Origin: Baekduia sp.
Lineage (GTDB): Bacteria > Actinomycetota > Thermoleophilia > Solirubrobacterales > Solirubrobacteraceae
DNA length: 64,000 nucleotides
Direction: 5' to 3'
NCBI GenBank assembly: GCA_037045385.1
Contig: JBAOHN010000008.1
Span: forward strand, 754,481 to 818,480
Positions 21,898 to 49,714 of the stretch are shown here, one piece after another (position 1 is the first letter of the stretch; every line of letters begins with the position of its first letter). The position numbers were made by a program, and so were the translations under genes. The notes beneath the pieces were generated by a model, which saw only the letters and a program-made list of their open reading frames with translations, did not search any database and had not been told where the DNA came from.

Positions 21898-21969
21898 TGG
21901 GCGCGGCGGGTTTCGAACCTGCGACCTCTCGCGTGTGAAGCGAGCGCTCTCCCACTGAGCTACGCGCCC
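21898..21969 (-). tRNA. tRNA-Val: tRNA-Val (anticodon CAC)
   Basis: Folded by hand: GGGCGCG-TA-GCTC-AGTGGGA-GAGC-G-CTCGC-TTCACAC-GCGAG-AGGTC-GCAGG-TTCGAAA-CCCGC-CGCGCCC-A. There is one A-C mismatch in the T stem. CCA is not encoded. Confidence 0.85.
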
Positions 21970-23757: not shown

Positions 23758-23865
23758 GGTTCCCGGGCGCGGCCCGTGTGACGCCGGCTCGTGAATCAGG
23801 TCAGGTCCGGAAGGAAGCAGCCTTAAGCGATTCCCGGCGGGTGCGCAGCGGTCGCGTCCGGGGCC
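23758..23865 (+). ncRNA. ffs: signal recognition particle RNA (small 4.5S type)
   Basis: The core CAGGTCAGGTCCGGAAGGAAGCAGCC (23797-23822) matches the E. coli 4.5S domain IV / GGAA tetraloop region as I recall it. The flanks pair into one long imperfect hairpin, followed by GTCTTTCTTT. Ends are approximate. Confidence 0.8.
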
Positions 23866-34011: not shown

Positions 34012-34305
34012 TCAGCCGCGGCGTGTCGTGAGCGTGCGGCTCTTGGCCTGGGCGCCGCTGACGGTGACGCGCAGCTTGGTGCGCAGCGACGGTGTCTTCT
34101 TGAGCTTGATCGTGCCGGTTGCGCGGCAGGCGCCGTTCTTGGTTGAGAGGCGCAGCGTGGTCTTGTAGGTCTTGCCGCCGAACGCGGTTGTGGCCTTGAC
34201 GCTCCCGCTGCAGCGCTTGCCCTTCTTGAGCGCCAGCTTGGCGTTGAGCGTGATCGTGCGACCGGAGAGGCGGGCCTCGATCAGCGGCGGCGTGACCACG
34301 GGTGG
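34012..34305 (-). repeat. conserved 3' module (C-terminal domain coding), copy in P1
   Basis: About 294 nt from the stop codon. Contains the 45-nt string CTTCTTGAGCTTGATCGTGCCGGTTGCGCGGCAGGCGCCGTTCTT (34096-34140), identical in P1-P4. Confidence 0.85.
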
Positions 34306-35937
34306 CGGATCGTTGCGGACGGCCGGCGCCGGCGGGTCGGTGACGCTGACCACCGAGCTGCGCGTCGCGGAGTTGCCGGCGGCGTCGGTCGCGGTGACGC
34401 TGACTCGGTACTCGCCGGTAGCGGCGAATGTGTGGCTGGGCGATTCGCCGGTCGCCGAAGTGCCGTCACCGAAGTCCCAGCGGACGCTCCTCATCTCGGA
34501 CCAGTCGTCGGAGGCTTCGGCCGAGACCGGCACTTCCTCGCCGGTGGTCGCTTGGTCCGGCACCGAGAGCGCCGACACCTGCGGCGGGCCGAAGTCAGCG
34601 ATCGCCGCGTGGACCGAGTACCGGCCGCTGGCGGTTGAGGTCCACGCGATGGCCACGTTGCCCTTGAGGTCGCTCTGGGAGACCGGCGTCGAGCTGAGAT
34701 CGACAGACGAGCCTGGAATCGGTGCCGGATCTGCCCAGGCACCGGTCGCGCTGTCGCGGACGGTGATGCCGATGCCCCTGGCACCGGTCACACGGGTCTG
34801 GGCGACGCCTGCAATCGCTCCGGACGGGAGCGGGACGAGATCGGCGAGTCCCCAAGAGGCGTCGGCGACCGGTGTGACCTGCTGCAGCTCGCCCCAACCG
34901 CCGCTCGCGGAGAAGATCCGCGTAGATGTTCCTGCGTGGACCGTCAGGAGGTCGTTGTTCACGATGCTGTTCAGATCGACGGCGAGCCAGGAGACGAGAA
35001 GGTCCCCGCCGCCGAGCGGAGCGACCGACGGTGCGACGTCGAACCAATCGTCGCTGGCGGCGTCGACCGGTGCATCCCAGCTGCTACCGGCCGAGCGCCT
35101 CAGCACCCACGCGGCTGCGTCCGGGCCCGGGTCCGCGAACCAGGTCGCCACCTGACCGCCCGCTCCGTCGCTGACGAGCTTGAGCAGCGCTGCGCCGCCG
35201 GGCTTGCTGAAGCTCTCGGGCACGCTCCAAGTGCTCTGGCTCGAGTCGTAGGTGGTCGTGCCGATGCCGCTACCGCTCCCGCTGTCGAGCGTGAACGCCA
35301 CGGTGATGTCGCCGTCATCGACGATCGCCCGGGGGTTCGACACCGCCAAAGAGCCCGACACGATCTCGCCGGCCGGCCATTGCCCCCCCTGCCCGGCTCG
35401 GCGGGCGGCGACGACGTGCCCGCCGTACTCGCGCCAGATCAGGGTCTGCACGCCGGATCGATCGGTCAGCAGCACAGGATCGGTCGACTCGGCGCCGTTG
35501 TTGCCTCCCGGCGTGTCCGAAAGCCGGTCGGTTGATGTCCACTCCCCCGTAGCGGCGAGCCGGGTCGAGGTCTCGATCTTGGTCACGCCTCCGACGGTCC
35601 GCGACCAGGCGACCGTGACGTCGTTCGACGCGCTCACGGTGATCGCCGGGTTTCCCAGCGCCGCTCCAGGCCCGCTGATCTCCTCTCGTGCCGACCAGCT
35701 CGTATCGCCGGGCGAACGGCGGCTCGAGTACACGTGGGACGCCGCGTCGTCGCCCTCGCCGATCCAGGCTGCGTGCGCCGTCCCGCCGCCGTCGAACCGC
35801 ACCGTCACGCCACCGCCCTGGTGGTCGGGGTCGCCGAGCAGTTCCTCACCGCCGACCCACGGAGCCGCTGATGCGGAGCTCGCAGCGAAGGCCGCGAGCA
35901 GGGTTGCGATGAGCGTGGCGAGAGGCCGGGTACGCAT
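34012..35937 (-). CDS. array paralog P1: secreted repeat/PKD protein with conserved basic C-terminal domain
   Basis: ATG at 35937 gives the signal peptide MRTRPLATLIATLLAAFAASSASA. PKD motif WDFGDGTSATGESPSHTFAATGEYRVSVTATD. Tail ..IEARLSGRTITLNAKL..TLTTRRG. The track ORF over-extends to 36126. Confidence 0.85.
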   Translation of the reverse strand: MRTRPLATLIATLLAAFAASSASAAPWVGGEELLGDPDHQGGGVTVRFDGGGTAHAAWIGEGDDAASHVYSSRRSPGDTSWSAREEISGPGAALGNPAITVSASNDVTVAWSRTVGGVTKIETSTRLAATGEWTSTDRLSDTPGGNNGAESTDPVLLTDRSGVQTLIWREYGGHVVAARRAGQGGQWPAGEIVSGSLAVSNPRAIVDDGDITVAFTLDSGSGSGIGTTTYDSSQSTWSVPESFSKPGGAALLKLVSDGAGGQVATWFADPGPDAAAWVLRRSAGSSWDAPVDAASDDWFDVAPSVAPLGGGDLLVSWLAVDLNSIVNNDLLTVHAGTSTRIFSASGGWGELQQVTPVADASWGLADLVPLPSGAIAGVAQTRVTGARGIGITVRDSATGAWADPAPIPGSSVDLSSTPVSQSDLKGNVAIAWTSTASGRYSVHAAIADFGPPQVSALSVPDQATTGEEVPVSAEASDDWSEMRSVRWDFGDGTSATGESPSHTFAATGEYRVSVTATDAAGNSATRSSVVSVTDPPAPAVRNDPPPVVTPPLIEARLSGRTITLNAKLALKKGKRCSGSVKATTAFGGKTYKTTLRLSTKNGACRATGTIKLKKTPSLRTKLRVTVSGAQAKSRTLTTRRG

Positions 35938-35941
35938 CGGA

Positions 35942-36235
35942 TCAGCCGCGGCGGGTCGTGAGCGCGCGGGTCTTCGCCTGGGCGCCGCTGACGGTGATAC
36001 GCAGCTTGGTGCGCAGCGACGGTGTCTTCTTGAGCTTGATCGTGCCGGTTGCGCGGCAGGCGCCGTTCTTGGTTGAGAGGCGCAGCGTGGTCTTGTACGA
36101 GCGGCCGCCGAAGGCGGTGGTGGCACGCACGGTGCCGCTGCAGCGCTTGCCCTTCTTGAGCGTGAGCTTGGCGTTGAGTGTGATCGTGCGGCCGGAGAGG
36201 CGCGCCTCGATCACCGGCGGGGTCACAACCGGCGG
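35942..36235 (-). repeat. conserved 3' module, copy in P2
   Basis: 36084-36220 matches P3 38002-38138 at 135/137 nt (hand count). Confidence 0.85.
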
Positions 36236-37855
36236 CGGGTCGTCTTCGCTGCCGTCATCGGCCGGCGGCGCCGGCGGGTCGCTGACGGCGATCATCCGCG
36301 TCTCGGTCGTCACGTGCCCGGCGTTGTCGATCGCCGTCACGCGCAGCGAATAGGTACCGGCCGCCGCGTACACGTGCGAGGCGGCTTCGCCGCTCGCCGA
36401 ACCGCCGTCGCCGAACTCCCACGCGGTCGACGCGACCCCGGACAGCGTGTCCGATACGCCCGCCGAGACGGCGACGCGCTCGCCGGTCGTCGCCGTTGCC
36501 GGAACGCTGAGCCCGTCGATGTCGGGGGCATCTCCGTCGCCCTCAGCGACGGCGACCGTCAGCGTCGGCGTGTCGGCGCGCAGCAGCGTGATCGCCGCGT
36601 TGCCGTTGTCGTCGAGCGCGGAGCCGAGCAGGCCGTTCGGCCCGACGCTGCTCGCCTCGCCGAAGAACGGGTCGATGTCGCCCCATCGGCCTCCGGACGG
36701 GCGGAACGCCGAGCCAACCTTGACCGAGCCGCCGTCCAGGATCGCGACCGCGGCGAGCATGTCGCCGTGCCGGTTGACCGAAAGCATCGGGGCGCCGGTC
36801 CAGGCGCTGGCGACCGGTTCTGGGTCGCCCCAGGCCTGCGCGTCGGCGTCGAAGGTCGCGGTGGTGACGTGGGCCTCGTCGGCGAAGTTGCCGCCGTTGA
36901 ACTCCTGCCAGACGACGACGAAGTTGCCGTCGGCATCGGCTCGGGCCTGACCGAAGTAGGTGTTCGGGCCGTTCTTGAACAGGGTGTGCGGCGGCGACCA
37001 CGTGTGGTCCGCGCTCATCGTCGCCGCGTTGATCCCCGTCGACGAGGGGGAGTTCCAGACCGCGACCGCGCGGCCAGCCGAATCGATCGCCGTCCCAGCG
37101 GAGATGTCGTTGCCGTCGGAGAACCCGGTCGTCGCGCCCGACCACTCACCGGTTGCCGGGTCCCGGAGGGCGTAGCGGAGGTGGTTGCCGTTGTCGTAGT
37201 GCTGCCACGAGGCGATCGCGTTGCCGTTCGGCGCGAACGAGAGTGCAGGGTCGCCCTGGCCGGTATCGGGCTCGTCGAAGGTCTCTGCGAGCGTCAAAGC
37301 ATCGGCGCCTGCGGGGAACCGCCAGAGCCGTGAGCGCCAGTCGCCGCCGCCCGTCGATCCGGTCGTGAGGAAGTAGACGCCGTCCGGGCCGCTCGCGATC
37401 GCGCTGCCGGTGAACATTTCGCCCGGCTCGGTCGCCGACGTCGCGGGCGTCCAACCCTCGTTCGGGTGGGAGATGGCGTACTCGCCTGTGCCGTTGGCCA
37501 GGAGCCAGAGCACGACCGCCGTCCCGTCCGGGCCGACGGCGACGCGCAGGTTGGTGTCGAACACGGCGATGTTCGAGTCCGGGTCCGAGACGACGCGCGC
37601 CTCGCCCCAGGTCCCGTCAGCCTCGCGGACCCTCGCGAATGCGCGCCGCAGTCCGCCTGCGATCTGGTTCCAGGCTACGACCACGCGCCCGTCAGGTGAC
37701 GTGGCGACATTCGCGTAGTGGGCGGCACCGCTCTCAGCGGAGAACGTCTGGGCCGGTTGCCAGACCGGCTCGAGGCCGGCGGCCGATGCAGCCGTCGTGC
37801 CTGCGGCCAGGGCGGCGGCAGTCAGCAGGGCGGTGGTGGTCAGGCGAGCGCGCAT
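35942..37855 (-). CDS. array paralog P2
   Basis: Signal peptide MRARLTTTALLTAAALAAGTTAASA, PKD WEFGDGGSASGEAASHVYAAAGTYSLRVTAID, conserved tail. The stop lies 4 nt from the P1 start. Confidence 0.85.
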   Translation of the reverse strand: MRARLTTTALLTAAALAAGTTAASAAGLEPVWQPAQTFSAESGAAHYANVATSPDGRVVVAWNQIAGGLRRAFARVREADGTWGEARVVSDPDSNIAVFDTNLRVAVGPDGTAVVLWLLANGTGEYAISHPNEGWTPATSATEPGEMFTGSAIASGPDGVYFLTTGSTGGGDWRSRLWRFPAGADALTLAETFDEPDTGQGDPALSFAPNGNAIASWQHYDNGNHLRYALRDPATGEWSGATTGFSDGNDISAGTAIDSAGRAVAVWNSPSSTGINAATMSADHTWSPPHTLFKNGPNTYFGQARADADGNFVVVWQEFNGGNFADEAHVTTATFDADAQAWGDPEPVASAWTGAPMLSVNRHGDMLAAVAILDGGSVKVGSAFRPSGGRWGDIDPFFGEASSVGPNGLLGSALDDNGNAAITLLRADTPTLTVAVAEGDGDAPDIDGLSVPATATTGERVAVSAGVSDTLSGVASTAWEFGDGGSASGEAASHVYAAAGTYSLRVTAIDNAGHVTTETRMIAVSDPPAPPADDGSEDDPPPVVTPPVIEARLSGRTITLNAKLTLKKGKRCSGTVRATTAFGGRSYKTTLRLSTKNGACRATGTIKLKKTPSLRTKLRITVSGAQAKTRALTTRRG

Positions 37856-37859
37856 CGGG

Positions 37860-38153
37860 TCAGCCTCTGCGGGTGGTGAGGGTTCGGCTCTTCGCTTGGC
37901 TGCCGCTGATCGTCACGCGCAGCTTGCTGCGCAGCGACGGGGTCTTCTTGAGCTTGATCGTGCCGGTTGCGCGGCAGGCGCCGTTCTTCGAGGCGAGGCG
38001 GAGCGTGGTCTTGTACGAGCGGCCGCCGAAGGCGGTGGTGGCGCGCACGGTGCCGCTGCAGCGCTTGCCCTTCTTGAGCGTGAGCTTGGCGTTGAGTGTG
38101 ATCGTGCGGCCGGAGAGGCGGGCCTCGATCACCGGCGGAATCACGACCGGCGG
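37860..38153 (-). repeat. conserved 3' module, copy in P3
   Basis: See the P2 copy. The 45-nt identical string is at 37944-37988. Confidence 0.85.
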
Positions 38154-39791
38154 CGCGTCGTCCGCATCGTCGGCGTCATCCGCCGGCGGCGCCGGCGGGT
38201 CGCTGACCGTGATCGTGCGAGTCGTCGTGGTCGACTGGCCCGACAGGTCGGAGCTCGTGACGCGAACCGTGTAGGTGCCGCCGGCGGCGTACGTGTGCCC
38301 GACCGAGGAGCCGGTCGCCTCCGAGCCGTCGCCGAACGACCAGTTCGTGGTCTCGACACCCGACCAGAGGTCGAACGGGGAGACAGAGAACGACACACGC
38401 TCCCCGGCGACCGCCGTCTGCGGCACCGACACCGCGCTGAGCGTCGGACCGAACGCATCACCGACTACGACCGCGATTGTGGTGTCGGTTGTGGCCCAGG
38501 CGGCAAAGGCGTTGCCGCGACGATCGGTTGCTATCGCCGGGATACCCGGCACCGGACCGGTCGCGATCGGGTTGGCCGAGGACAGCACCTCACCGGAGCC
38601 GAAGTCGCCGCCGCTCGGGCGGTGGAGCCCGACCAGCGCAGGAACGCCGCCGTCGATCCCGAAGACGACCGCGGTGATGTTGCCCGACCCGTCTGCGGTC
38701 AGTGTCGCGGCGCCGCCGTTCGGGCCGATGAGATCCTCGGTCGGCGACCACTGACCGGTCGCGGTGTCGAAGGTCGTCATCAGCGCGCGCGGGAGCAGCA
38801 AGTCGTCGGAGAAGTCGAACTCCTGCCAGAGCGCGACGAACTGCCCGTCGTGGTCGGCGGCGATCCGCGTCAGCACCGCATTCGGCCCGGCTACGAACTT
38901 CGAGCCGCCGTCGGTCCAGACTCCGGAGCTGCCGTCGAGGCTGGCGACGTGGACGTCGGTCGCGGTCCCTGAGGACCAGACCATCGCCGCGTCGCCGTCG
39001 TCGTTGAACGCGAGCGCCGGGTCCTGCGTGCCGTTGCCGTCGGTCGTGGCGATCGTCGCGATCGGCGACCAGTCGCCGTTGCCCGCGTCGTAGGTCGCGC
39101 CCTGCATCTCCGGGGTCCCGGAGTACGGGTTCTTCCACCACGTGGCGACGGCGTCGCCGTGCGAGTTGTAGGCCAGCCGGGGGTTCGCGTAGCCGGCGTC
39201 GTCCGGCAGGTCGATCTCGCCCGTGACCGAGAAGTCGTCGCTGCCCGCGGGGCGCGTGCGGATGCGCAGCCGCTTGTCGCCGCTCAGGTTGCTGAGGTTC
39301 ACGCCGGCCATTGCCGAGCCTGGCCCGGCGACCGTGTAGCCGCCTTCGAAGCTCTCGCCGCTGTCGGCGAAGGAGGCCGCGGTGCTCCACTGCGACGAGC
39401 CCGGCTGACGAGTGCTCGCGTAGACGACCGAGAAGTCGCTGTTGCCGAACGCGACGCTCGCGGAGCCGTCTGCGGCGGTCGCGAGCTGGTACGAGCCGTA
39501 GCCGGAGATGTCGATGCCGGCCGGGGAGATGTAGCTGACCGGCGTCCAGGCGCCGGCGGCGATCCGCGTGCGCTGCGCGAGCCGCAGGTGGCTGCCGTCG
39601 CTCTGCGCCCAGATCACCGAGACGGTTCCGTCGTCGGCGGCGGAGATCTTTGGCCAGCCGGTGGCGGCTGCCGGCGAGGAGATCGGCTCAGGCGTGCCCC
39701 ACGAAGGCGCTGCGGCGCCTGCACTCGGTATCGGCGCGGTGCAGGCGGCAGCGGTGAGCAGAGCAGCGAGGAACGGACGGCGCGAGGTCAT
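37860..39791 (-). CDS. array paralog P3
   Basis: Signal peptide MTSRRPFLAALLTAAACTAPIPSAGA, PKD WSFGDGSEATGSSVGHTYAAGGTYTVRVTSSD, conserved tail. The stop lies 4 nt from the P2 start. Confidence 0.85.
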   Translation of the reverse strand: MTSRRPFLAALLTAAACTAPIPSAGAAAPSWGTPEPISSPAAATGWPKISAADDGTVSVIWAQSDGSHLRLAQRTRIAAGAWTPVSYISPAGIDISGYGSYQLATAADGSASVAFGNSDFSVVYASTRQPGSSQWSTAASFADSGESFEGGYTVAGPGSAMAGVNLSNLSGDKRLRIRTRPAGSDDFSVTGEIDLPDDAGYANPRLAYNSHGDAVATWWKNPYSGTPEMQGATYDAGNGDWSPIATIATTDGNGTQDPALAFNDDGDAAMVWSSGTATDVHVASLDGSSGVWTDGGSKFVAGPNAVLTRIAADHDGQFVALWQEFDFSDDLLLPRALMTTFDTATGQWSPTEDLIGPNGGAATLTADGSGNITAVVFGIDGGVPALVGLHRPSGGDFGSGEVLSSANPIATGPVPGIPAIATDRRGNAFAAWATTDTTIAVVVGDAFGPTLSAVSVPQTAVAGERVSFSVSPFDLWSGVETTNWSFGDGSEATGSSVGHTYAAGGTYTVRVTSSDLSGQSTTTTRTITVSDPPAPPADDADDADDAPPVVIPPVIEARLSGRTITLNAKLTLKKGKRCSGTVRATTAFGGRSYKTTLRLASKNGACRATGTIKLKKTPSLRSKLRVTISGSQAKSRTLTTRRG

Positions 39792-39862
39792 CGTCCTCCA
39801 GTGATCGGCCGCCGGTCGCCGCCCCTTCAGGCGACGCTGGACGACTTTGGACGCGGCTGCGG

Positions 39863-40156
39863 TCAGCCGCGGCGGGTCGTCAGCGTGCGGCTCTTGGTCT
39901 GGCTGCCGCTGACGGTGACGCGCAGCTTGGTGCGCAGCGACGGTGTCTTCTTGAGCTTGATCGTGCCGGTTGCGCGGCAGGCGCCGTTCTTGGTCGCGAG
40001 GCGAAGCGTGGTCTTGTACGAGCGGCCGCCGAACGCGGTCGTTGCGCGCACGGTGCCGCTGCAGCGCTTGCCCTTCTTGAGCGACAGCTTGGCGTTGAGG
40101 GTGACCGTGCGGCCGGCGAGCCGCGCCTCGATCAGCGGCGGGTTCACGACCGGTGG
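39863..40156 (-). repeat. conserved 3' module, copy in P4
   Basis: The 45-nt identical string is at 39947-39991. Confidence 0.85.
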
Positions 40157-41740
40157 AGCGTCGTCGTCCGAGTCATCGTCCGGCGGCGCCGGCGGGTCGC
40201 TGACCACGATCGTCGCCGACCGTGACGCGCTGTTGCCGGACTCGTCGGTCGCCGTGACGGTGACGTCGTATGTCCCGGCGGCGAACGTGTGCGACGCGGA
40301 TGCGCCGCCGGCCGACCGGCCGTCGCCAAAGTCCCAGTCGTAGCTGATGTCGCTCCAGACATCCGATGCGGACGCGTGCATGGTCACCGGAACGCCACTG
40401 ACAGCGCTCGCCGGCACCGACACCCCGGAGAGGCTCGGTGCCGAGCCATCGAGCGCGGCGACGTTGACGCGTTCGCCGGACCCGTCGACCCACGTGACAA
40501 GGCCGTTGCCGAGCCCGTCGAGGTCGCCGCGGACGAGGCCGTAGTTGTAGTTGAAGCTGAACTCGTCGACCGCGAGGCCGGAGTCCCACGCCGAGGCGCC
40601 GTGCGCGAGCAGTGCGCCTCCGACGCCGGGGAGCTGCGCGCCGTCATTCGCGCCGAGCATGGAGACGAAGGCGTCGCCAGCCGCGTTGGTGTGCACGGAC
40701 GGCATCCCGCCGAGGTTCGGCGTCATGTTGACCTCAGGTCCCCAGCCCCCGGCTCCGGGCTCGAAGGAGCGCCGGATCGCGGTCGCGCTGTACATCGAGG
40801 TCATCCGCTGGTAGGTCGCGACGAACCGGCCGCCGGGAAGGGCGCCGACGCTGGCAAGCAGCTCTGGGCCGGTGCCGATCTGATCCGCGGCGCTCCAGTC
40901 GCTCGACCCGGCGGGCAGATACGCCGCCGTCGCGATGTCATCGCCGATCCAGACCGCCGTCGCGCTGCCGTCGGACGCGATGTCGACGCCCTGATGAAAG
41001 GCGTTGCCGGTCATCGTGGTGATGTCGTCCGCCTGCTCCCACGAACCGGCCTCCGCGCCGAAGCGGGCGGCGCGGAGTGCCTTCTGACCACCCACGTTCG
41101 CGATCCAGAAGGCGACGCCGGAGCCGTTTCGGTTGACAGCCGCCGCAACGCTGTTCAGCCCGGTGGCGTCGCTCTGGGCGAGCTCGGTGACCGGGCCCCA
41201 ACCGGTGCCGTCCGCGTCACGCACGCTGAGCCGCACCGTGTACGAGCCGGCGTCGTCGTTCGTCCAGACGGCCACCATCCGGCCGCCGGGGAGCGGAGCG
41301 AGCGACGGCCCGGTGTCGTTGCCGACACCGGGCTCGACCGGCGTGGGGGTGCTCCACACGCCGCTGCTCTTGGTCTTCGTGGCGGTCCACAGCTCGGAGG
41401 AGCCGGACCAGGCGACCGTGACGTTGCCGTGATCGTCGACCTCGGTCACGTACTCCTGGTTGAGGCTCGCAGCCGGGCCCGCGACCTCGGTGGTTGCCGA
41501 CCAGGTTCCGCTCGAGCTACGCGAGTCGTTGACGAGGGCTAGATCGTTGCCACGCTGCTCGAAGCGCAGCACGTCGACGGCGCCGTCGGGGCCGCCGGCG
41601 ACCTCGGGGAAGCCGGTCACGCCGCCCGCAGCTTCGAACGAGTGCGGCTCGGTCCAACCGGCGGCGCCCGCGACCGGGGCGGCGGCCGCGCAGGCGGCAG
41701 CGGTGAGCAGAGCAGCGAGGAACGGACGGCGCGAGGTCAT
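39863..41740 (-). CDS. array paralog P4
   Basis: Signal peptide MTSRRPFLAALLTAAACAAAAPVAGA (first 17 codons plus RBS identical to P3), PKD WDFGDGRSAGGASASHTFAAGTYDVTVTATD, conserved tail. Confidence 0.85.
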   Translation of the reverse strand: MTSRRPFLAALLTAAACAAAAPVAGAAGWTEPHSFEAAGGVTGFPEVAGGPDGAVDVLRFEQRGNDLALVNDSRSSSGTWSATTEVAGPAASLNQEYVTEVDDHGNVTVAWSGSSELWTATKTKSSGVWSTPTPVEPGVGNDTGPSLAPLPGGRMVAVWTNDDAGSYTVRLSVRDADGTGWGPVTELAQSDATGLNSVAAAVNRNGSGVAFWIANVGGQKALRAARFGAEAGSWEQADDITTMTGNAFHQGVDIASDGSATAVWIGDDIATAAYLPAGSSDWSAADQIGTGPELLASVGALPGGRFVATYQRMTSMYSATAIRRSFEPGAGGWGPEVNMTPNLGGMPSVHTNAAGDAFVSMLGANDGAQLPGVGGALLAHGASAWDSGLAVDEFSFNYNYGLVRGDLDGLGNGLVTWVDGSGERVNVAALDGSAPSLSGVSVPASAVSGVPVTMHASASDVWSDISYDWDFGDGRSAGGASASHTFAAGTYDVTVTATDESGNSASRSATIVVSDPPAPPDDDSDDDAPPVVNPPLIEARLAGRTVTLNAKLSLKKGKRCSGTVRATTAFGGRSYKTTLRLATKNGACRATGTIKLKKTPSLRTKLRVTVSGSQTKSRTLTTRRG

Positions 41741-41811
41741 CGTCCTCCTGTGATCGGCGGCGGGCGCCAGCGTCCAGAGGTGCTGGTGGACGACGTTGGA
41801 CGCGCTTCCGG

Positions 41812-42105
41812 TCAGCCACGGCGGGTCGTCAGCGTGCGGCTCTTGGCCTGGGCGCCGCTGACGGTGACGCGCAGCTTGGTGCGCAGCGACGGTGTCTTCT
41901 TGAGCTTGATCGTGCCGGTTGCGCGGCAGGCACCGTTCTTGGTCGCGAGCCGGAGCGTGGTCTTGTACGTGCGCCCGCCAAAGGCGGTCGTCGCGCGCAC
42001 GGTCCCGCTGCAGCGCTTGCCCTTCTTGAGCGTGAGCTTGGCGTTGAGGGTGATCGTGCGGCCGGAGAGGCGGGCCTCGATCACCGGCGGAATCACGACC
42101 GGCGG
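41812..42105 (-). repeat. conserved 3' module, copy in P5
   Basis: Same module with a few substitutions (for example GGCAGGCACCG). Confidence 0.8.
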
Positions 42106-43719
42106 CTTCGGGTCGTCCGAGTCGTCGGCGTTGTCGTCGCGGGCCGGCGGAGCGGGCGGGGCGCTGACGACGAGCTGCCGGGTCTGCGTGGCCGAGTGCC
42201 CGACGGCGTCGGTTGCGGTTACGCGCACCGAGTAGGTGCCGGCGGCGCTGTAGGCGTGTGAAGCAGATTCCCCGGTCTTGCGAGCGCCGTCGCCGAAGTC
42301 CCAGGAGACCGAGTCGACGTCGGACAGGACGTCGAACGCCGACGCGCTGACCGGTACCTGCTCACCGACCGTTGCGGTGGCAGGCACCTCGACATCCGAG
42401 ATCGCCGGAGGCGCGCCGTCGCCGGTCGCGATGACGAGCGTGCCGTCGGCCCGCTCCCAGGCCATCGCGACATCGCCGTGCGCGTCCGCGCCGATGCCGG
42501 CTCCGTCGAGCAGGCTGATCGTCTCGCCGGCGAACTCGGTGTCGTCGGCCCAGCTCGTCCCGAGCGGCTCGCGCACCGTCGTGCCGACGTGGATGTCCAT
42601 GAAGCTCGACCCCGAGAACTGGGCGCCGAAGATCGAGCCGTCCGGGCGCTGCGCAAACGAGGGCACGACCGTCATCCCGTTCCCGTCACCGAAGGCCGCG
42701 GGCGCTGCGAACGCGCTGTCGTCCCGGCCGATCGACGTGTGGCCCGAGCCGTAGGACATGCCGTCGGTCGAGATCCAGGTCACGATCAGCGAGTCGCTTG
42801 CGTCGAACCCGAGCCAGCCGCTGACCGACTGCGCCTCGGGTGCCTGTTCGGCCGCCGTCCACGTGCCGTTCAGCCGGCGCGCGAACGTGGCCTTCGAGAC
42901 CCAGTTCGGCGAAGAGCCGGTCTGCTGGATCCAAATCGCGCCGAGCTGGTCACCGGCCGCGTTGACGGCGAACTTGAGGCCGTAGCCGCTGTCGGGCGCT
43001 CCGACCGTGAGATCGGTCGGGGGGCCCCAGCTCTGCGACCCGGCGGCGCGCTCGGCGACGATCTGCCGCTGCGAGCCGCCGCTCTGCTCGCGCCAGCCCG
43101 CGGTCAGCGAGCCGTCCGGGAGCGCGACGATCGCCGGGTCGTAGCCGGGCGCCGAGTTGACCGGCTCTGGCGGCCCCCACTCGCTGCTCCCCGGCGCGAG
43201 CGCGCGCAGATAGACCCGATCGCCGTTGTAGATCGCGTACGTGGTGCCGTCCGGGGCGGTGGTGAAGTTCGTCCCCCCGGAAGCGACGTTCGGGTCCGAC
43301 AGCGTCTCCTGCGGCCCCCACGTTCCACTGTCGCGGTCGAGCCGGCGGACGGTCGCCTTCCAGGTCGAGCCGTCGTTGACGGTCAGGCCGAGAAGGAGGT
43401 CACCGTCTGCCGTGGTGGCGGCGTTCACGCCGGTCGGGGTTTCGCCGTTCTCGCTGATGAACTGGGTCGGTCCCCAATCGCCTCCGGCACGCCGGAACCG
43501 CGCCTTGAGGCGTTGCTGCCCACCGTTGCTGATCGCCCAGCCGGCGAACAGGTCGCCGGACGGCGTCATGTAGCCGATGATCCCCTGGCCGTCGGCCTCG
43601 CCGGGAGCTGTGACTGCGACCGGCGTCTGCCAGGTCGGCATCGGCAGGTCTGCGGCAGCGGGCGCCGCGCAGGCGACCGTCGCGGCGATCGTGGCAATTG
43701 CAGTCGGGTGAACGCGCAT
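41812..43719 (-). CDS. array paralog P5
   Basis: ATG at 43719 (MRVHPTAIATIAATVACAAPAAA) is preceded by CCGATCAC as in P3/P4. The alternative GTG at 43764 overlaps the P6 stop. PKD WDFGDGARKTGESASHAYSAAGTYSVRVTATD, conserved tail. Confidence 0.8.
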   Translation of the reverse strand: MRVHPTAIATIAATVACAAPAAADLPMPTWQTPVAVTAPGEADGQGIIGYMTPSGDLFAGWAISNGGQQRLKARFRRAGGDWGPTQFISENGETPTGVNAATTADGDLLLGLTVNDGSTWKATVRRLDRDSGTWGPQETLSDPNVASGGTNFTTAPDGTTYAIYNGDRVYLRALAPGSSEWGPPEPVNSAPGYDPAIVALPDGSLTAGWREQSGGSQRQIVAERAAGSQSWGPPTDLTVGAPDSGYGLKFAVNAAGDQLGAIWIQQTGSSPNWVSKATFARRLNGTWTAAEQAPEAQSVSGWLGFDASDSLIVTWISTDGMSYGSGHTSIGRDDSAFAAPAAFGDGNGMTVVPSFAQRPDGSIFGAQFSGSSFMDIHVGTTVREPLGTSWADDTEFAGETISLLDGAGIGADAHGDVAMAWERADGTLVIATGDGAPPAISDVEVPATATVGEQVPVSASAFDVLSDVDSVSWDFGDGARKTGESASHAYSAAGTYSVRVTATDAVGHSATQTRQLVVSAPPAPPARDDNADDSDDPKPPVVIPPVIEARLSGRTITLNAKLTLKKGKRCSGTVRATTAFGGRTYKTTLRLATKNGACRATGTIKLKKTPSLRTKLRVTVSGAQAKSRTLTTRRG

Positions 43720-43760
43720 CGGTTCTGTGATCGGCGGGGCGCGCGCGATCTTGCGGCGCG

Positions 43761-44054
43761 TCACCCGCGCCGCGTCGTCAGCGTGCGGCTCTTGGCCTGG
43801 CCGCCGCTGACGGTCACGCGCAGCTTGGTGCGCAGCGAGGGGGTCTTCTTGAGCTTGATCGTGCCGGTCGCGCGGCAGGCTCCGTTCTTCGTCGCGAGCC
43901 GGAGTGTCGTCCTGTACGTGCGCCCGCCGAACGCGGTCGTCGCGCGCACGGTGCCGCTGCAGCGCTTGCCCTTCCTCAGCGTCAGCTTTGCGTTCAGCGT
44001 CACGGTGCGACCGGCGAGCCGCGCTTCGATCAGTGGCGCCGTGACGACCGGCGG
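43761..44054 (-). repeat. conserved 3' module, copy in P6
   Basis: Same module, slightly more diverged. Confidence 0.8.
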
Positions 44055-45728
44055 GCGCACCTCAGGCGGAGGGCTGGGCGGGTCGGTGACGACGATCTCT
44101 CGCGTTGTTCGCGCGGCGTTCCCGAACAGGTCGGCCGAGGTCGCCGTGACGGTGTAGGTAGCGGCCCGTGTGTACGCGTGCGTGACGCTCGCCCCGGTTG
44201 CCGCCGCTCCATCACCGAAGTTCCAGCCGGTCGTCAGCGACGGTGCGAACGTGTCGACCGCGTCGGCCGTCATCGGCACCGGTTCACCGGTCGTCGCCGA
44301 TTCCGGCACGGTCACCGACCGCTGCTCTGGTGCGGTCGCGTCACCGACGACGACCTCGAGGTGGCGGTTCGTTCCGGCATCGGCGCGGGCCCAGGCGATC
44401 GCCGGGTTGCCAGCGTTGTCCAAGGCCAGGGACGGCGGCGCCGCGGCCATCGACAGGACGCCGCCGTAGCCGGGGTCGGCCTCGGTGAAGTCGTCCGACC
44501 CGTCCGGGCGGAAGACCAGGTCGCCGGCGACGCCGGTCACGGCGAAGTCGGTCTGGACACGCGAGAAGTTGACGCCGCCGGGATCTGCCGCCATGAACGA
44601 GATCGCGATGTCGTAGTTGTCGTTGACAGTGAGTGCCGGTCCGCCGGAGAAGCGGGTTCCGGCGTCCAGCGTCTCGAGCGGTGACCACTGGCCGGTCTCT
44701 GCGTCACGGGTCCGCATCCGTGCGCGGCTGGTCGGGTACATGACGTTCGGGTCGGCGTCGAACGTGAGCGTCTGCATCACGAGGACGACGTCGCCGTCAC
44801 GATCGCTGGCGACCTGGCTTAGGATCGCGTTCCAGCCCGGTGCGGTCGCGATCACGGTGCTCCAGGCGGCGCCGGGATCGGCGTCGACCGAGGTCGCCTG
44901 CGGCGTGAAGTCGGTGCCGCGGGTCCAGGCGGCGGTCGCGGCGCCGTCCGGCGTCGTCGCCACCGACAGGAACTCAGGGCCGGCGCCGTCGGTGTCGAGC
45001 GTCGCCGGAGCGCCCCATGTGCCGTGCTCGCCGTCGTAGCGCGCCGCCATCACCGCGTGGTCCGAGGTGCCGTCGAGGTTCTTGCCCCAGACGACCGTCG
45101 CGTCGCCGGCGGCGTTGGTCGACAGTGCGACCTGGCCCGGATGGTCGTTGCCGGGATCGACGTCGGTCGGGGCGCCCCAGGTCGCCGCGTTCGCGTCGCG
45201 GATCCGTACGCGGATGCAGTCGCCACCGTGGTAGCTGCTGTAGGCGAGCATCACTCGGCCGCCGCTGAGCGCCTTCACATCGGCGCCGTGGACGCCCTCG
45301 CCGCTCACGACCTCGGCCGCCTCGGACCATGTCCCGCTGCCGGCAAGCCGGGTACGGGCCTTGATCGCCTCGCTGCCGCTGACCCTCCAGACGACCGTGA
45401 GGTTGCCTGCGTCGTCATAGGTGAGCCAACGACCCCGCGTGTAGACCGACTCGCCCGCAGGCGATACCGGATTGGGTGCCGTCCACTCGCCGCTCGGTGT
45501 CCGCTCGGTGAGGTAGAGCCGATCGCCGGTGCCGTCCGACTGGGTGTATGCGATGACGCGCTGATCGCCGCGCGCGGCGATCAGCGGTTGGTCGAGCGTA
45601 GAGTCGCTCGGGGAAAGCGCGATCGATGGGTTGAACCCGACCGCCTGTGCTGAGATCGGCAACCCGGCGAGCATCGTCGCCACGGCGACGGCGCACGAAC
45701 GGAACAGGGGTAGCCGACGAGGTCGCAT
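43761..45728 (-). CDS. array paralog P6
   Basis: ATG at 45728 with SD-like GGTGAGG that overlaps the P7 stop (the track start is GTG 45740). PKD WNFGDGAAATGASVTHAYTRAATYTVTATSAD, conserved tail. Confidence 0.8.
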   Translation of the reverse strand: MRPRRLPLFRSCAVAVATMLAGLPISAQAVGFNPSIALSPSDSTLDQPLIAARGDQRVIAYTQSDGTGDRLYLTERTPSGEWTAPNPVSPAGESVYTRGRWLTYDDAGNLTVVWRVSGSEAIKARTRLAGSGTWSEAAEVVSGEGVHGADVKALSGGRVMLAYSSYHGGDCIRVRIRDANAATWGAPTDVDPGNDHPGQVALSTNAAGDATVVWGKNLDGTSDHAVMAARYDGEHGTWGAPATLDTDGAGPEFLSVATTPDGAATAAWTRGTDFTPQATSVDADPGAAWSTVIATAPGWNAILSQVASDRDGDVVLVMQTLTFDADPNVMYPTSRARMRTRDAETGQWSPLETLDAGTRFSGGPALTVNDNYDIAISFMAADPGGVNFSRVQTDFAVTGVAGDLVFRPDGSDDFTEADPGYGGVLSMAAAPPSLALDNAGNPAIAWARADAGTNRHLEVVVGDATAPEQRSVTVPESATTGEPVPMTADAVDTFAPSLTTGWNFGDGAAATGASVTHAYTRAATYTVTATSADLFGNAARTTREIVVTDPPSPPPEVRPPVVTAPLIEARLAGRTVTLNAKLTLRKGKRCSGTVRATTAFGGRTYRTTLRLATKNGACRATGTIKLKKTPSLRTKLRVTVSGGQAKSRTLTTRRG

Positions 45729-45736
45729 GGTGCGCC

Positions 45737-46030
45737 TCACCCGCGCCGCGTCGTCAGCGTTCGGCTCTTGACCTGGCCGCCGCTGACGGTCACGCGGAGC
45801 TTGGTGCGCAGCGACGGGGTCTTCTTGAGCGTCGTCCGGCCGGTGGCGCGGCAGGCGCCGCCGGCGGTCGCGAGCTTGAGGTTCGTGCGGTAGCGCTTGC
45901 CGCCGAAGACGACCGTCGCGCTGACCTTGCCTGAGCAGACCTGACCGCGCTTCAGCGTCAGCTTGGCGTTGAACGTGATGATCCGGCCGGCGAGCCGCGC
46001 CTCGATCACCGGGGCGGCGATCGCCGGCGG
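45737..46030 (-). repeat. conserved 3' module, copy in P7 (most diverged of the array)
   Basis: ..VIEARLAGRIITFNAKLTLKRGQVCSGKVSATVVFGGKRYRTNLKLATAGGACRATG..TLTTRRG. Confidence 0.75.
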
Positions 46031-47767
46031 CTTGACGTCCTCGACCACCGTGTCCTCGTCGTCCGCGGCCGGAGCATCGGCCGGCGGCGCCGGCGGCGCC
46101 GGCGGCGGGTCGGCCGCTGCGTCGGTGACGGTCACCTGCCTCGTCGCCGAAGTCGAGTGCCCCTGGAGATCCGAAGCCGTGATCGTCACCGTGTAGGTGC
46201 CGGCCGCCCGGTAGGCGTGGGCGGTGCTGCTGCCGGTCTCAGCGCCGCTGCCGTCACCGAAGGTCCAGGTCACCGCCGCCACGCTCGAGAAGAGGTCGAA
46301 CGGGTCGACCGAGACATCAATCTGCTGACCGGTCTCGGCCGATGACGGGACGGCGATGCCGTCGAGCCGCGGCCCGCTCGCGTCGGACACCGCGAACGCA
46401 CTGTGGACGGCCGGGTCGCCCATCGTCCCGTGCGGGTACACGACGAGGCCGTCGAGGTCGTCGGTGAGCGTGCCGCTCGGCGTGCCGAACTGGACGTTGA
46501 CCGTGCTCGTCGTGATCAGCCCGCGATCGGACCACCCGGACGCGCCGCTCTCGCGGACCGCGAGCCCGGCCTTGAGCGTTGCGCCGTTGTCGTCGGAGCC
46601 GATGTAGGCGAGGCTGATGTCGCCGTGCGCGTTGCGCCACGGCATCGGCGCTCCGCCGAACGGGGTCACCGCCTGTGCGCTGTCCCAGGTGTTCGAGGCG
46701 CCGTTGTAGGCCCGTGCGGTGGGTGACGGGATGTAGTAGCCACCCTGGTCGTTGTACTGCTGGTAGGTGAGGACGACGTTGTCGTCGTTGTCGGGCGTCA
46801 GCGCCGGGATGATCACGGCCGCGCCCGATGCCGGCGTCAGCCGTTCCGGCGTGCTCCAGTTGACGGTGCCGGGTGCGGCGACGGTCGCGTAGACAGAGTT
46901 CTCGGCGGTCGGCTGGCCGGATTGGTTGATGTGGACGTCGCCGTCGCTCCAGACCACCACGAGGGCGCCTCCGGAGGAGATCGCGCCGGCGACCTTGTTG
47001 ACGCCGGCTGTCGCCGCCAGCGCCTCGGTCACACCGGAGCAGACACCGTCGCTGCCACAGCGTTTGGCGCGGACGCCCTGGTCGCCGCCTCCGGTCGAGT
47101 AGCTCCAGAACACTGCGAGCTCACCGCTGTCGTTCGAGGAGACCTGCGTGCTCCAGATGTTGAGCGCTCCCTCGTGGATCGTGTTTTCGACCGACCACGT
47201 CGCCGTCCCGGCGGCGCGCCGCGCGATGACGACGTCGTTGTCGCCGGACTCCTGGCGAATGAAGGCAAGGGCGCTCGAGCCGCCGGCGAGCGCCGTCGCC
47301 GTCCCGCCGTAGACGCCGTCGGTCTGCGGGACCATGTCGTTGAGGCTCCAGCTGTCCCACTCGGTCTCGCCGGACAGCAGCGTGTCGACCTCGGTCTCGT
47401 TCCCGGCGTTCCAGATCACCGAGAAGCTGCCGTCCCGGTTCGCCTGCACCTGCGCGTTGTCACCGACATCCTGGCCGGCGGGAGAGAGCCACTCCGCCGC
47501 GCCCCAGGTTCCGTTCGCGTCGCGAACACGGACGCGGAGGCGCCGGTTCGAGCCGTCGATCTGGAACCAGCCGGCGAGGATCCGGTCGTCGGTTCCGAGC
47601 ACGGCGATGCCCTGTCCCGCGACCTCGCCGGCGGTCGACAGCTGCTGTGTTGCGGTCCACGACGGCGGGGCAGCGGTTGCGGCCGCGGGAGCGGTCGCGA
47701 TCACGGCAGCGGTCAGAAGTAGGGCACGGGCGATCGACACGGGGCTCATCGCCTGATCCATCGGCAT
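45737..47767 (-). CDS. array paralog P7
   Basis: Signal peptide ..MSPVSIARALLLTAAVIATAPAAATA (start could be 47767, 47761 or 47749), PKD WTFGDGSGAETGSSTAHAYRAAGTYTVTITASD, longest acidic/Pro linker, conserved tail. Confidence 0.8.
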   Translation of the reverse strand: MPMDQAMSPVSIARALLLTAAVIATAPAAATAAPPSWTATQQLSTAGEVAGQGIAVLGTDDRILAGWFQIDGSNRRLRVRVRDANGTWGAAEWLSPAGQDVGDNAQVQANRDGSFSVIWNAGNETEVDTLLSGETEWDSWSLNDMVPQTDGVYGGTATALAGGSSALAFIRQESGDNDVVIARRAAGTATWSVENTIHEGALNIWSTQVSSNDSGELAVFWSYSTGGGDQGVRAKRCGSDGVCSGVTEALAATAGVNKVAGAISSGGALVVVWSDGDVHINQSGQPTAENSVYATVAAPGTVNWSTPERLTPASGAAVIIPALTPDNDDNVVLTYQQYNDQGGYYIPSPTARAYNGASNTWDSAQAVTPFGGAPMPWRNAHGDISLAYIGSDDNGATLKAGLAVRESGASGWSDRGLITTSTVNVQFGTPSGTLTDDLDGLVVYPHGTMGDPAVHSAFAVSDASGPRLDGIAVPSSAETGQQIDVSVDPFDLFSSVAAVTWTFGDGSGAETGSSTAHAYRAAGTYTVTITASDLQGHSTSATRQVTVTDAAADPPPAPPAPPADAPAADDEDTVVEDVKPPAIAAPVIEARLAGRIITFNAKLTLKRGQVCSGKVSATVVFGGKRYRTNLKLATAGGACRATGRTTLKKTPSLRTKLRVTVSGGQVKSRTLTTRRG

Positions 47768-47818
47768 TCGGCCGCGCCCGGTCGAGCGATCTGGACGATC
47801 GGCCGGTTCGGCCTCCTG

Positions 47819-48112
47819 CTAGCCGCGGCGGGTGGTCAAAGTCCGGCCCTTGGCCTGCTTGCCGGAGATCGTGACACGCAGCTTGGTACGCAGCGACGGC
47901 GTCTTCTTCAGTTTGATCGTGCCGGTTGCGCGACATGCGCCGTTCTTGGTCGCGAGGCGCAGCGTGGTCTTGTAGCTGCGGCCGCCGAAGGCGGTGGTCG
48001 CCTTTACGGTGCCGCTGCAGCGCTTGCCCTTCTTGAGCGTGAGCTTGGCGTTGAGTGTGATCGTGCGTCCGGAGAGGCGGGCCTCGATCACCGGCGGGAT
48101 GACGACCGGCCG
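47819..48112 (-). repeat. conserved 3' module, copy in P8
   Basis: Same module with scattered substitutions. Confidence 0.8.
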
Positions 48113-49714
48113 GTTGTCGTCATCGCCCGAGTCGTTATCGCTCGGCGGAGCGGGCGGGTCGCTGACGGTGATCGTGCGGGTCGTCGTGGTCGGTTGACCT
48201 CTGCCGTCGGTCGCGCGGACGGTGACCGTGTAGGTGCCCCCGGCCGCGTAGGTGTGGCCGGCCTGCTCGCCGGTCGCGGCGCTGCCGTCGCCGAACTCCC
48301 AGCGCACCGACGCGACATCGGACCAGCGGTCGTCGGCCGAAACCGACACCGGGACGCGCTCGCCGGCGGTCGCGGCTGCCGGGACGCTCAGGTCGCTGAG
48401 CGCCGGGCCTGCGCCGTCACCGAGGGAGACCATCACCGTTCCGTCGGACTGTGCCCAGGCCATCACGACGTTGCCCTCGTCGTCGCCGCTGAGGCCCAAG
48501 CCGGCCATCGCGTAGACCGGCTCACCGTCGAAGCTCTTGGCCATCGACCACTCGCCGCTGTCCGGATCCCAGGCGGCCACGCCGGCTGTGACAGACATGA
48601 TCGATGGGCCGAACGGCAACGCGGCGTAGACGGTCCCGTCGGGCCGGGCGGCCGGTTCGAGCATGCCGCTGAAGATGCCGGTGCCGAGCGGTGCGACCTG
48701 CGCCGACCACCCGGTCTCGCCCGCTCGAAGCACGCTGGCGTAGCCGACGAGGTCGGCGCCGGTGCCCGCGAGGCCGGTCTGGACGAAGTCCCCGCGTGCC
48801 GTCAGCGTCAGGCCTGGGGCCGCGCCCGACTGGTAGATGAGGTCGGGCGGGTTCCAGCTGCCGTCGGCCGAGCGGACGACACGCCGGGCTCCGACGTCGC
48901 CGCCCATCTGCTCGAGCCAGAGCAGCACGGCGGTTCCATCGTCGCGGATCCTGCCTGCGGTCGGGAAGAAGCCGGCGGCTTCCCCGGAGATCGTCGTGAC
49001 GTCACCCCACGCGGCATCCGTTGTCGACCGTGACCTGGCGCGCATCACATGGTGTCCGGAGCCGCCGCTCGTGTCGGTCCAGGCGGCGATCTGCTCGCCG
49101 TCGCCAGCCGCGTAGACCCGGGCGCCGCCCGCGTTGTCGGTTCCGGGGGAGGCGTAGGCCGGCGTGTCGAAGCCCACGGCGCCCCGCTGGCGGACCGCCA
49201 CCGCAGCCCGTGAGGTCGACCCGTCGTTCTCGGTCCAGGCGGCAAAGACCCGGCCCGCGCCGTCGGCCGCGAGCGAAGGCCCCCACGAGCCGTTCACGTC
49301 TCCGAGCTGGTCGGACTCCCACTGCTGCGAGTCGGCGAGGAGCATGGCGACCGTCACCCTCGTGACGCCGCCGTTCGAGACTTGGCCGGCGATGAGGAAG
49401 TCGCCGTCAGAGGAGGCGACGGCGGTGATGTTGCTGACGTCGTCGCCGGTGAGGACCGGCTCCTGGGGCCGCCAATCGCCGCCGGGGTCGCGGACCGCGA
49501 CCATGAACGACTGCCCCAGCTCCCAGCCTGCGATCAGCCGGCCCTGCGGCGTCGCTCGCACGTTGACCGGGGCGTTGTCGAGGGTCCCGACCGCCTGCGG
49601 CGTCTCCCAGACCGGCTGCGGCAGCTTGGCGGCGGCCTGCGCGGTGGCAGCCGTCGCTGTCAGCGCGGCCGTAGCCACGAGCGAGCAGAGCAGGGGGAAC
49701 CGGCGCGCAGGCAT
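47819..49714 (-). CDS. array paralog P8 (promoter-proximal)
   Basis: Signal peptide MPARRFPLLCSLVATAALTATAATAQA, PKD WEFGDGSAATGEQAGHTYAAGGTYTVTVRATD, conserved tail. TAG stop, whereas the others use TGA. Confidence 0.85.
   Translation of the reverse strand: MPARRFPLLCSLVATAALTATAATAQAAAKLPQPVWETPQAVGTLDNAPVNVRATPQGRLIAGWELGQSFMVAVRDPGGDWRPQEPVLTGDDVSNITAVASSDGDFLIAGQVSNGGVTRVTVAMLLADSQQWESDQLGDVNGSWGPSLAADGAGRVFAAWTENDGSTSRAAVAVRQRGAVGFDTPAYASPGTDNAGGARVYAAGDGEQIAAWTDTSGGSGHHVMRARSRSTTDAAWGDVTTISGEAAGFFPTAGRIRDDGTAVLLWLEQMGGDVGARRVVRSADGSWNPPDLIYQSGAAPGLTLTARGDFVQTGLAGTGADLVGYASVLRAGETGWSAQVAPLGTGIFSGMLEPAARPDGTVYAALPFGPSIMSVTAGVAAWDPDSGEWSMAKSFDGEPVYAMAGLGLSGDDEGNVVMAWAQSDGTVMVSLGDGAGPALSDLSVPAAATAGERVPVSVSADDRWSDVASVRWEFGDGSAATGEQAGHTYAAGGTYTVTVRATDGRGQPTTTTRTITVSDPPAPPSDNDSGDDDNRPVVIPPVIEARLSGRTITLNAKLTLKKGKRCSGTVKATTAFGGRSYKTTLRLATKNGACRATGTIKLKKTPSLRTKLRVTISGKQAKGRTLTTRRG

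Follow-up and report, generated by a model that had tools for sequence, protein, structure and literature searches.

How can a row of neighboring genes share a similar last 0.3 kb when their front parts have diverged strongly? This question is raised by a family of paralogs in the window analysed here, a stretch of 64,000 nucleotides (nt) of contig JBAOHN010000008.1 from Baekduia sp., an uncultured soil actinobacterium placed in the Solirubrobacterales (Actinomycetota); the G+C content of the window is 70.7%. Eight tightly packed tandem paralogs (P1–P8) occupy the minus strand from 34012 to 49714, and two further paralogs (P9 and P10) lie upstream of them in the direction of transcription (Table 1). 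The proteins of this family consist of five parts: a signal peptide, a propeller region of about 430 residues, a PKD domain, an acidic Pro/Asp linker and a C-terminal module. The 3' segment of about 294 nt that encodes this module is common to P1–P8 and P10, the P9 copy (at 56532) being diverged. Judging from comparisons of these sequences within and between genomes, it is very likely that the 3' ~0.3 kb of the paralogs evolves in concert via gene conversion, possibly with unequal crossing-over as well.

The limits of the shared segment are easily seen. Among P1–P6 and P8 the mean pairwise nucleotide identity climbs from about 0.4 to about 0.85–0.95 at a point some 300 nt short of the stop codon; just past this codon it is back to about 0.3. 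A 45-mer recurs exactly at 34096, 36026, 37944 and 39947 (in P1–P4), where none would be expected by chance, and again at 41896 with one mismatch and at 43845 with two; similarly, the match between P2 (36084–36220) and P3 (38002–38138) is indeed 135 of 137 nt. The original prediction, which was made from the letters of the window alone, had the last ~97 codons nearly identical in every member. A shared 3' repeat is certainly present, but its copies range from 74 to 92% nucleotide identity to that of P2, and the P9 module can be aligned to the others only as protein (40–43%), its synonymous sites being saturated. The strong divergence claimed for the upstream parts is real, the propellers of the window paralogs having a protein identity of 18–34% and matching one another at no more than 118 bits. 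With respect to the nine recombination substrates said to lie about 1.9 kb apart, the repeat (~300 nt) does recur every 1918–2082 nt, but only in the eight tandem genes; the module of P10 is 14.3 kb from that of P8.

The most telling evidence comes from related genomes in which the propeller and the module of the same gene give conflicting affiliations. Synteny with the window is seen in the metagenome contig L004 (acyl-CoA dehydrogenase, 83% identical; RDD; L/F-transferase; M50 protease, 73%; sdhA, 91%), and the order of P10 and these five neighbors is kept both in L004 and in L011, a contig of a second genome (GCA_964268595.1). The propeller of P10 has clear orthologues in these two other genomes: that in L004 is 41% identical (~260 bits), as against at most 63 bits for P10 and any other window paralog, and that in the second genome (L011_12059) is 42% identical (339 bits), with 53% for the PKD domain and 65% for the module. 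However, the P10 module groups with the other window modules (75–82%), whereas the module of its L004 orthologue groups with those of its own metagenome (76–79%) and is only 64% identical to that of P10. The two other orthologous pairs behave in the same manner: P1 and P0111 are 56% identical in the propeller, 51% in the PKD domain and 51% in the module, and for P7 and P0084 the corresponding values are 53%, 61% and 63%. Non-orthologous neighbors within the window, on the other hand, have 25–32% identity in the propeller and 43–57% in the PKD domain, but 73–92% in the module. In phylogenetic trees the module sequences split by genome, while across genomes the propeller of P10 pairs with L004c and that of P9 with L004d. 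The module thus groups by genome and array position, and the propeller by orthology across genomes. From one species to another the module diverges at roughly the pace of the remaining protein, and yet it is alike within a genome, a pattern that defines concerted evolution. Moreover, each of the propeller lineages of P1, P3, P6, P7 and P10 is more closely related to a sequence from another genome than to any from its own, so the paralogs must predate the split of the genomes.

The second genome, which has kept the synteny with the window (L011), also carries a tandem array of its own, with at least 11 paralogs (L008), and in this array the module type tracks adjacency rather than propeller ancestry. 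Four consecutive genes have a single module type (89–93% nucleotide identity) attached to propellers that are 23–34% identical. Between two adjacent genes, 18006 and 20053, the modules have only 2–3 differences in about 300 nt, with a synonymous divergence (dS) of 0.01, in spite of propellers that are 43% identical, and the identity of these genes breaks down about 308 nt upstream of the stop codon. Conversely, the two closest propellers of the array, in genes 10001 and 12166 (58%, 483 bits), are followed by differing module types, one of which has an insertion that is common to two other, non-orthologous genes.

Synonymous sites have to be interpreted with some care in such a genome. The G+C content at third codon positions (GC3) is 90% in this family, and with this bias independent draws of a codon for one amino acid will agree about half the time. 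We scored codon identity at identical residues and obtained dS by the Nei-Gojobori method. In the window, codon identity is 0.55 in the propellers and 0.58 in the PKD domains, close to the 0.52–0.53 expected from codon usage, and hence the synonymous sites of both are saturated. Propeller codon usage was also considered as a null for the module (0.54), but it is too low and was replaced by an empirical baseline of 0.63 from between-genome module pairs, which cannot have exchanged by intragenomic conversion. The modules of P1–P5 (0.83) and the comparison of P1–P5 with P8 (0.75) both lie above this baseline. The corresponding dS is 0.25 among P1–P5, 0.36 to P8, about 0.52 to P6, P7 and P10, and 0.65 between genomes; the ratio of nonsynonymous to synonymous divergence (dN/dS) is about 0.2 among P1–P5 and 0.65 between genomes. 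The lower synonymous divergence anticipated for the module consequently holds for six of the nine copies (P1–P5 and P8) and fails for P6, P7 and P10, and none of the copies has undergone very recent conversion along its full length. There is a more general lesson here: in very high G+C genomes codon bias alone gives about 55–63% codon identity at conserved residues, so that claims of synonymous identity need an empirical baseline.

Could the array simply be young? In this scenario a recent tandem duplication would have been followed by very fast divergence of the propellers under diversifying selection, with the module lagging behind. The propellers do evolve fast, the 42% identity of the P10 orthologues comparing with 83–91% for flanking housekeeping proteins, and both the size and the layout of the array vary between genomes. 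Nevertheless, selection on the protein sequence cannot cause the saturation of synonymous sites in the propeller and PKD regions, five of the propellers are closer to those of other genomes than to their window neighbors, and the closest propeller pair in the second genome has modules of differing type. Since the propeller lineages predate the genome split and their synonymous sites are saturated, recent duplication can be set aside as improbable.

The homogenised tract itself is about 0.3–0.45 kb long, has sharp ends and a mosaic structure, and in one case crosses a gene boundary. This last case, the boundary-crossing repeat listed in Table 1, is about 87–90% identical to 41661–42113 (the module of P5, the spacer and the start of P4) and includes a stretch of about 60 nt without a single difference, which covers the ribosome-binding site and signal peptide; beyond it the propellers are again only about 25% identical. 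A tract that ignores both a domain and a gene boundary points to a process at the level of DNA. Within the module, a table of polymorphic sites reveals patches that are common to differing subsets of the copies. The P7 module is a mosaic of this kind: its center (nt 61–195) is 64% identical to the P1–P5 modules, its flanks are 82–85% identical, and 25 of its last 27 residues agree with the core copies, as against 17 of 27 with the module of its own orthologue. We used our own implementations of two tests of such structure, both of which are sensitive to rate heterogeneity along the module. A run test like that of GENECONV singled out five pairs (Bonferroni-corrected p 0.018–0.036), and a permutation test similar to that of the pairwise homoplasy index (PHI) gave p 0.001–0.05 for a seven-copy set. 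For all nine copies and for P1–P5, the PHI-like p varied with window size from 0.004 to 0.68, the outcome depending on the set and window chosen, so that the statistical support for mosaic tracts is modest at most.

A number of results weigh against concerted evolution of the module, or at least against a strong version of it. The mosaic and tract tests are only modestly significant, with the sensitivity just mentioned. Compared with the P1–P5 modules, those of P6, P7 and P10 are at the synonymous baseline (codon identity 0.66–0.68). Codon bias is stronger in the module than elsewhere in the gene, so that naive estimates of synonymous similarity come out too high (0.63 between genomes versus the null of 0.54). 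The lowest proportion of synonymous differences (pS) between window modules is about 0.15, and no pair is truly near-identical over the whole module; the window itself thus gives no clear sign of the "ongoing" conversion originally proposed, whereas one pair in the sister genome has a dS of 0.01. Modules of genes that lie farther apart along the array are only weakly more diverged (Mantel r 0.32, p 0.06). Finally, the comparison genomes are all metagenome-assembled genomes (MAGs) or metagenome contigs, in which location on one contig is proven for some paralogs only.

Some of these points would also suit purifying selection alone, according to which the module is merely slow to evolve and the similarity of the paralogs reflects constraint. 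The dN/dS of about 0.2 among P1–P5 is what such constraint would produce, strong codon bias can raise synonymous similarity without any conversion, and P6, P7 and P10 are no closer to the core than the synonymous baseline. But a slowly evolving module ought also to be conserved between orthologues, and there it fares no better than the propeller (51–65% versus 42–56%), with a between-genome dN/dS of 0.65. It is this comparison, 51–65% between orthologues and 73–92% between non-orthologous neighbors of one genome, that bears out gene conversion rather than purifying selection alone. Nor would constraint give non-orthologous paralogs the same genome-specific residues and insertion, carry one tract on into the spacer and the next gene, or leave a pair at dS 0.01 in the second genome. 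Purifying selection as the sole explanation is largely refuted, and we consider it very improbable.

Repeats in MAGs may also be collapsed or cross-corrected during assembly and polishing, which would create a false similarity. The short-read contig L001 does end exactly at a repeat (39795): it stops 4 nt past the P3 start codon (window 39792–39795), at the edge of a perfect repeat of 60 nt that recurs at the start of P4, which implies that these repeats break short-read assemblies. A second, independent contig, L010, departs from L008 inside a gene (L010 7893–8416 versus L008 13755 onward); it matches the array of the second genome at 99.9% and then gives way to unrelated sequence within the PKD region of the gene, reflecting either a structural variant or a chimeric assembly. 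However, the module copies differ by 7–30% and so have not been collapsed. Moreover, L001, an independent assembly, reproduces P1–P3 with 3 mismatches in 8035 nt (99.96%), and the second array is confirmed over 11.4 kb by L009, which has 2 mismatches to it (99.98%). Near-identical full-length variants of P6, P8 and P10 (P0066, P0064 and P0068) are also present in the protein library, although their source assembly is not established. An artefact thus has hardly any credibility as the source of the pattern. The three differences between L001 and the window were checked as conversion footprints in P3 and match no other paralog. Equally remote is the last alternative, that a structured RNA, regulatory site or antisense gene within the module constrains the DNA itself: the modules are overlapped by long antisense open reading frames (ORFs), as expected at 71% G+C, but there is no Rfam match anywhere in the array, the between-genome nucleotide identity of the module is 58–71% (74–84% for the short unplaced contig L003 only) and the substitutions track the sense frame (dN/dS ~0.2).

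Gene conversion by homologous recombination, then, would repeatedly copy short stretches of DNA from one gene copy to another. The copied region would comprise the C-terminal module with part of the linker and, on one occasion, would have extended beyond the stop codon to include the first part of the following gene. Between paralogs, the propeller and PKD sequences are too diverged to recombine, and so these parts would evolve independently. Copying may well depend on RecA and take place when tandem copies misalign, with identical stretches like the 45-mer as starting points; a length of at least 45 nt would perhaps be the minimal substrate. Unequal crossing-over between neighboring copies could, in addition, alter the copy number. 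The suggestion that the repeats reshape the array is consistent with the differing layouts of the arrays in the two genomes. Homogenised tails may be tolerated, or even favored, if every member of the family must fit one shared partner.

A contig from a third organism (L012 1–2452, Logan SRR31357139) has a gene in the position of P10, directly upstream of the acyl-CoA dehydrogenase. Its propeller is nearest to those of P3 and P0071 (154–174 bits), and its linker and module are 84% identical to those of P10. This gene could be a fusion that arose from recombination between neighboring genes or, alternatively, a separately homogenised paralog; its P3-like propeller and P10-like tail would fit a reshuffling of the array without proving it. 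On the contig L002 of the second genome (9960–10010), a lone member of the family has a frameshift in the linker, as a result of which the module is called as a separate protein of 99 residues (P0058); the frameshift could be a sequencing error or the mark of a real pseudogene.

What are the parts that are thus kept apart? A Pfam profile search finds the PKD domain (PF18911 / PF00801) in P2, P7, P8 and P10 at 49.8–65.9 bits, well above the gathering threshold of 27, and gives no PKD match in P9. The P9 module has a four-residue insertion and is about 40% identical, and the counterpart of P9 in L004 (16333–18024) likewise lacks a PKD domain but is located on the other side of the M50 protease gene. 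The N-terminal ~430 residues match no sequence family in Pfam. In the full-length AlphaFold (AF2) model of P2, with a predicted local distance difference test (pLDDT) score of 83.6, they are nevertheless all beta strands, and Foldseek matches this part to propeller lectins, sialidases and the Protein Data Bank (PDB) entry 1l0q (E 1e-10 to 1e-14). This N-terminal region is accordingly predicted to be a beta-propeller, as the original description of it as propeller-like had it. The acidic linker of P7, DDEDTVVEDVKPP, matches the linker type of several paralogs elsewhere (P0083–P0090).

The C-terminal module has 92–98 residues and, modelled alone (AF2, pLDDT 87), is predicted to form a seven-strand beta-sandwich. 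It has no sequence match in Pfam, NCBIfam (in both of these even at E up to 10 or 1) or the PDB, and a fold search returned only generic beta-sandwiches, the best at E 0.027. Its charge is extreme: 23 Lys and Arg to a single Asp or Glu in 92 residues, with an isoelectric point (pI) of 12.0, whereas the mature protein minus the module is acidic (pI 4.2). An exhaustive profile search among 1.84 billion representative proteins found the module in 72 cluster representatives, nearly all of them 600–680 residues long and ending in the module. When 185,579 species-representative genomes were scanned twice with module patterns there was no match, but the patterns were narrow and the result is weak evidence of absence. 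The same module is found on a protein of about 860 residues with RCC1-type repeats (L006 7616–10291 and P0072) instead of the propeller-PKD body, and it must thus have moved between protein architectures. By these searches, the module is a previously undescribed C-terminal domain family.

As to what this domain does, its restriction to only 72 clusters, and its almost constant location at the end of propeller-PKD proteins of about 640 residues, make a specific function at the surface of Solirubrobacterales cells probable. Its charge, C-terminal position and occurrence on an unrelated RCC1-repeat protein lead us to guess, quite tentatively, that the basic module might hold the secreted propeller on an anionic polymer of the cell envelope, or else fit some different partner common to the family, with which every member would need to remain compatible. 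A more elaborate possibility, which we put forward as a rather unlikely speculation, is that the module is a lineage-restricted "address tag" by which a whole repertoire of propellers is tied to a single partner, specific to the genome, that acts either in export or as a receptor in the envelope. Gene conversion would then let the tag and its partner co-evolve without stranding any member of the family, and the repeats would serve as handles by which propeller units are swapped, fused or deleted; a P3-like propeller with a P10-like tail at the P10 locus would be in keeping with such reshuffling. If true, this would amount to a constant-region/variable-region system for a bacterial surface repertoire.

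The genes of the array are so closely spaced that their ends abut or overlap: the stop codon of P7 and the start of P6 overlap by 4 nt (45737–45740), and gaps of only 4 nt separate P3 from P2 and P2 from P1. P5 could start either at a GTG (43764) that overlaps the P6 stop codon or at an ATG 45 nt downstream (43719). This arrangement suggests that P1–P8 may be co-transcribed and translationally coupled. The P1 ORF reaches 36126, the ATG at 35937 being its likely start, and for the P2 protein there is an identical database entry, from a MAG of Baekduia sp., whose annotation reads PKD domain-containing protein. A lipase-like gene (49779–51452) adjoins the upstream edge of the array; in the second genome such a gene (L008 14242–15954) is internal to the array, with at least eight paralogs before it and at least three after. 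Over the whole window Rfam has two matches only, a tRNA gene (21898–21969, minus strand) and a small signal-recognition-particle RNA (23765–23862, plus strand).

Table 1. Coordinates in the window of the paralogous genes, their 3' modules and the boundary-crossing tract
Feature	Position	Strand	Remarks
P1 gene	34012–35937	-	641 residues; signal peptide, propeller, PKD, linker, C-terminal module
P2 gene	35942–37855	-	637 residues; full-length AF2 model, pLDDT 83.6
P3 gene	37860–39791	-	643 residues
P4 gene	39863–41740	-	625 residues
P5 gene	41812–43719	-	635 residues from ATG at 43719; library protein P0063 starts MRVHPT
P6 gene	43761–45740	-	ORF of 659 residues
P7 gene	45737–47767	-	676 residues; module mosaic
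P8 gene	47819–49714	-	631 residues; first in tandem array by direction of transcription
P9 gene	56532–58277	-	581 residues; older paralog, outside homogenised set
P10 gene	62103–64000	-	cut by window end; full-length variant P0068 has 651 residues
3' module of P1	34012–34308	-	90% nt identity to P2
3' module of P2	35942–36238	-	reference copy; AF2 module model, pLDDT 87
3' module of P3	37860–38156	-	91% nt identity to P2
3' module of P4	39863–40159	-	91% nt identity to P2
3' module of P5	41812–42108	-	92% nt identity to P2
3' module of P6	43761–44057	-	84% nt identity to P2
3' module of P7	45737–46033	-	74% nt identity to P2; most diverged of tandem set
3' module of P8	47819–48115	-	87% nt identity to P2
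3' module of P10	62103–62399	-	77% nt identity to P2
Boundary-crossing repeat tract	39712–40164	-	P4 module, 71-nt spacer and first ~80 nt of P3

The Solirubrobacterales are abundant but little-studied soil bacteria, and the two syntenic arrays, of eight and at least 11 genes, provide a clean natural example in which one segment of a gene evolves in concert while the remainder diverges. The case is a neat and well-controlled example rather than a surprise. The process is known from other bacteria; what is new here is its action on an undescribed protein domain.

Several known systems resemble one or the other part of these proteins. The archaeal surface-layer protein 1l0q (a tandem YVTN beta-propeller followed by a PKD domain) and the seven-bladed PLL/PHL lectins have a fold like that of the N-terminal two thirds (E ≤8e-12, template modelling score up to 0.7 on the target), and 1l0q even has the same propeller-then-PKD order; these proteins are, however, without the basic C-terminal module, are not known as conversion-homogenised arrays and share no sequence family with the Baekduia proteins. 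The module itself recalls Por_Secre_tail (PF18962), a beta-sandwich of about 80–100 residues with which many otherwise unrelated secreted proteins end and which frequently follows PKD or Ig domains; the Baekduia module is likewise a predicted C-terminal beta-sandwich that also occurs on an RCC1-repeat protein. Its extreme positive charge, on the other hand, is not a feature of Por_Secre_tail. A type IX secretion C-terminal domain was ruled out, as there is no match to PF18962 or TIGR04183, and actinobacteria are not known to use type IX secretion. Anchoring by sortase as an LPXTG protein was also ruled out: the sequence ends in ...SRTLTTRRG, with neither an LPXTG motif nor a hydrophobic stretch.

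With respect to the genetic process, the pilE/pilS system of Neisseria, vlsE of Borrelia and msp2 of Anaplasma all obtain the variable segment of the protein from silent cassettes that lack a promoter, the copy being made into a single site of expression. What the Baekduia array would have in common with these systems is recombination that is segmental and non-reciprocal and that takes place among arrayed paralogous sequences for surface proteins. Antigenic variation from silent cassettes was nevertheless ruled out here, because each of the ten copies is a full-length ORF with its own start codon and signal peptide, and the part that is copied is the constant one.

Among described cases the nearest is that of babA/babB and homA/homB in Helicobacter pylori, whose 3' segments represent the same known process. 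There, the 5' and middle regions are alike between strains and the 3' region is alike within a strain (Pride and Blaser 2002, as summarised in PMC3960876), a pattern that the summary attributes to RecA-dependent intragenomic gene conversion, with chimeric genes as a result (PMC3960876). As in the Baekduia array, divergence affects the ligand-facing part and homogenisation the C-terminal one. The Helicobacter genes occupy two or three dispersed loci of a Gram-negative pathogen, and their homogenised part is a membrane beta-barrel. The Baekduia-type arrays differ from babA/babB in host and protein family, in having eight to eleven or more tandem genes, in homogenising a small basic beta-sandwich, and in a module type that follows adjacency.

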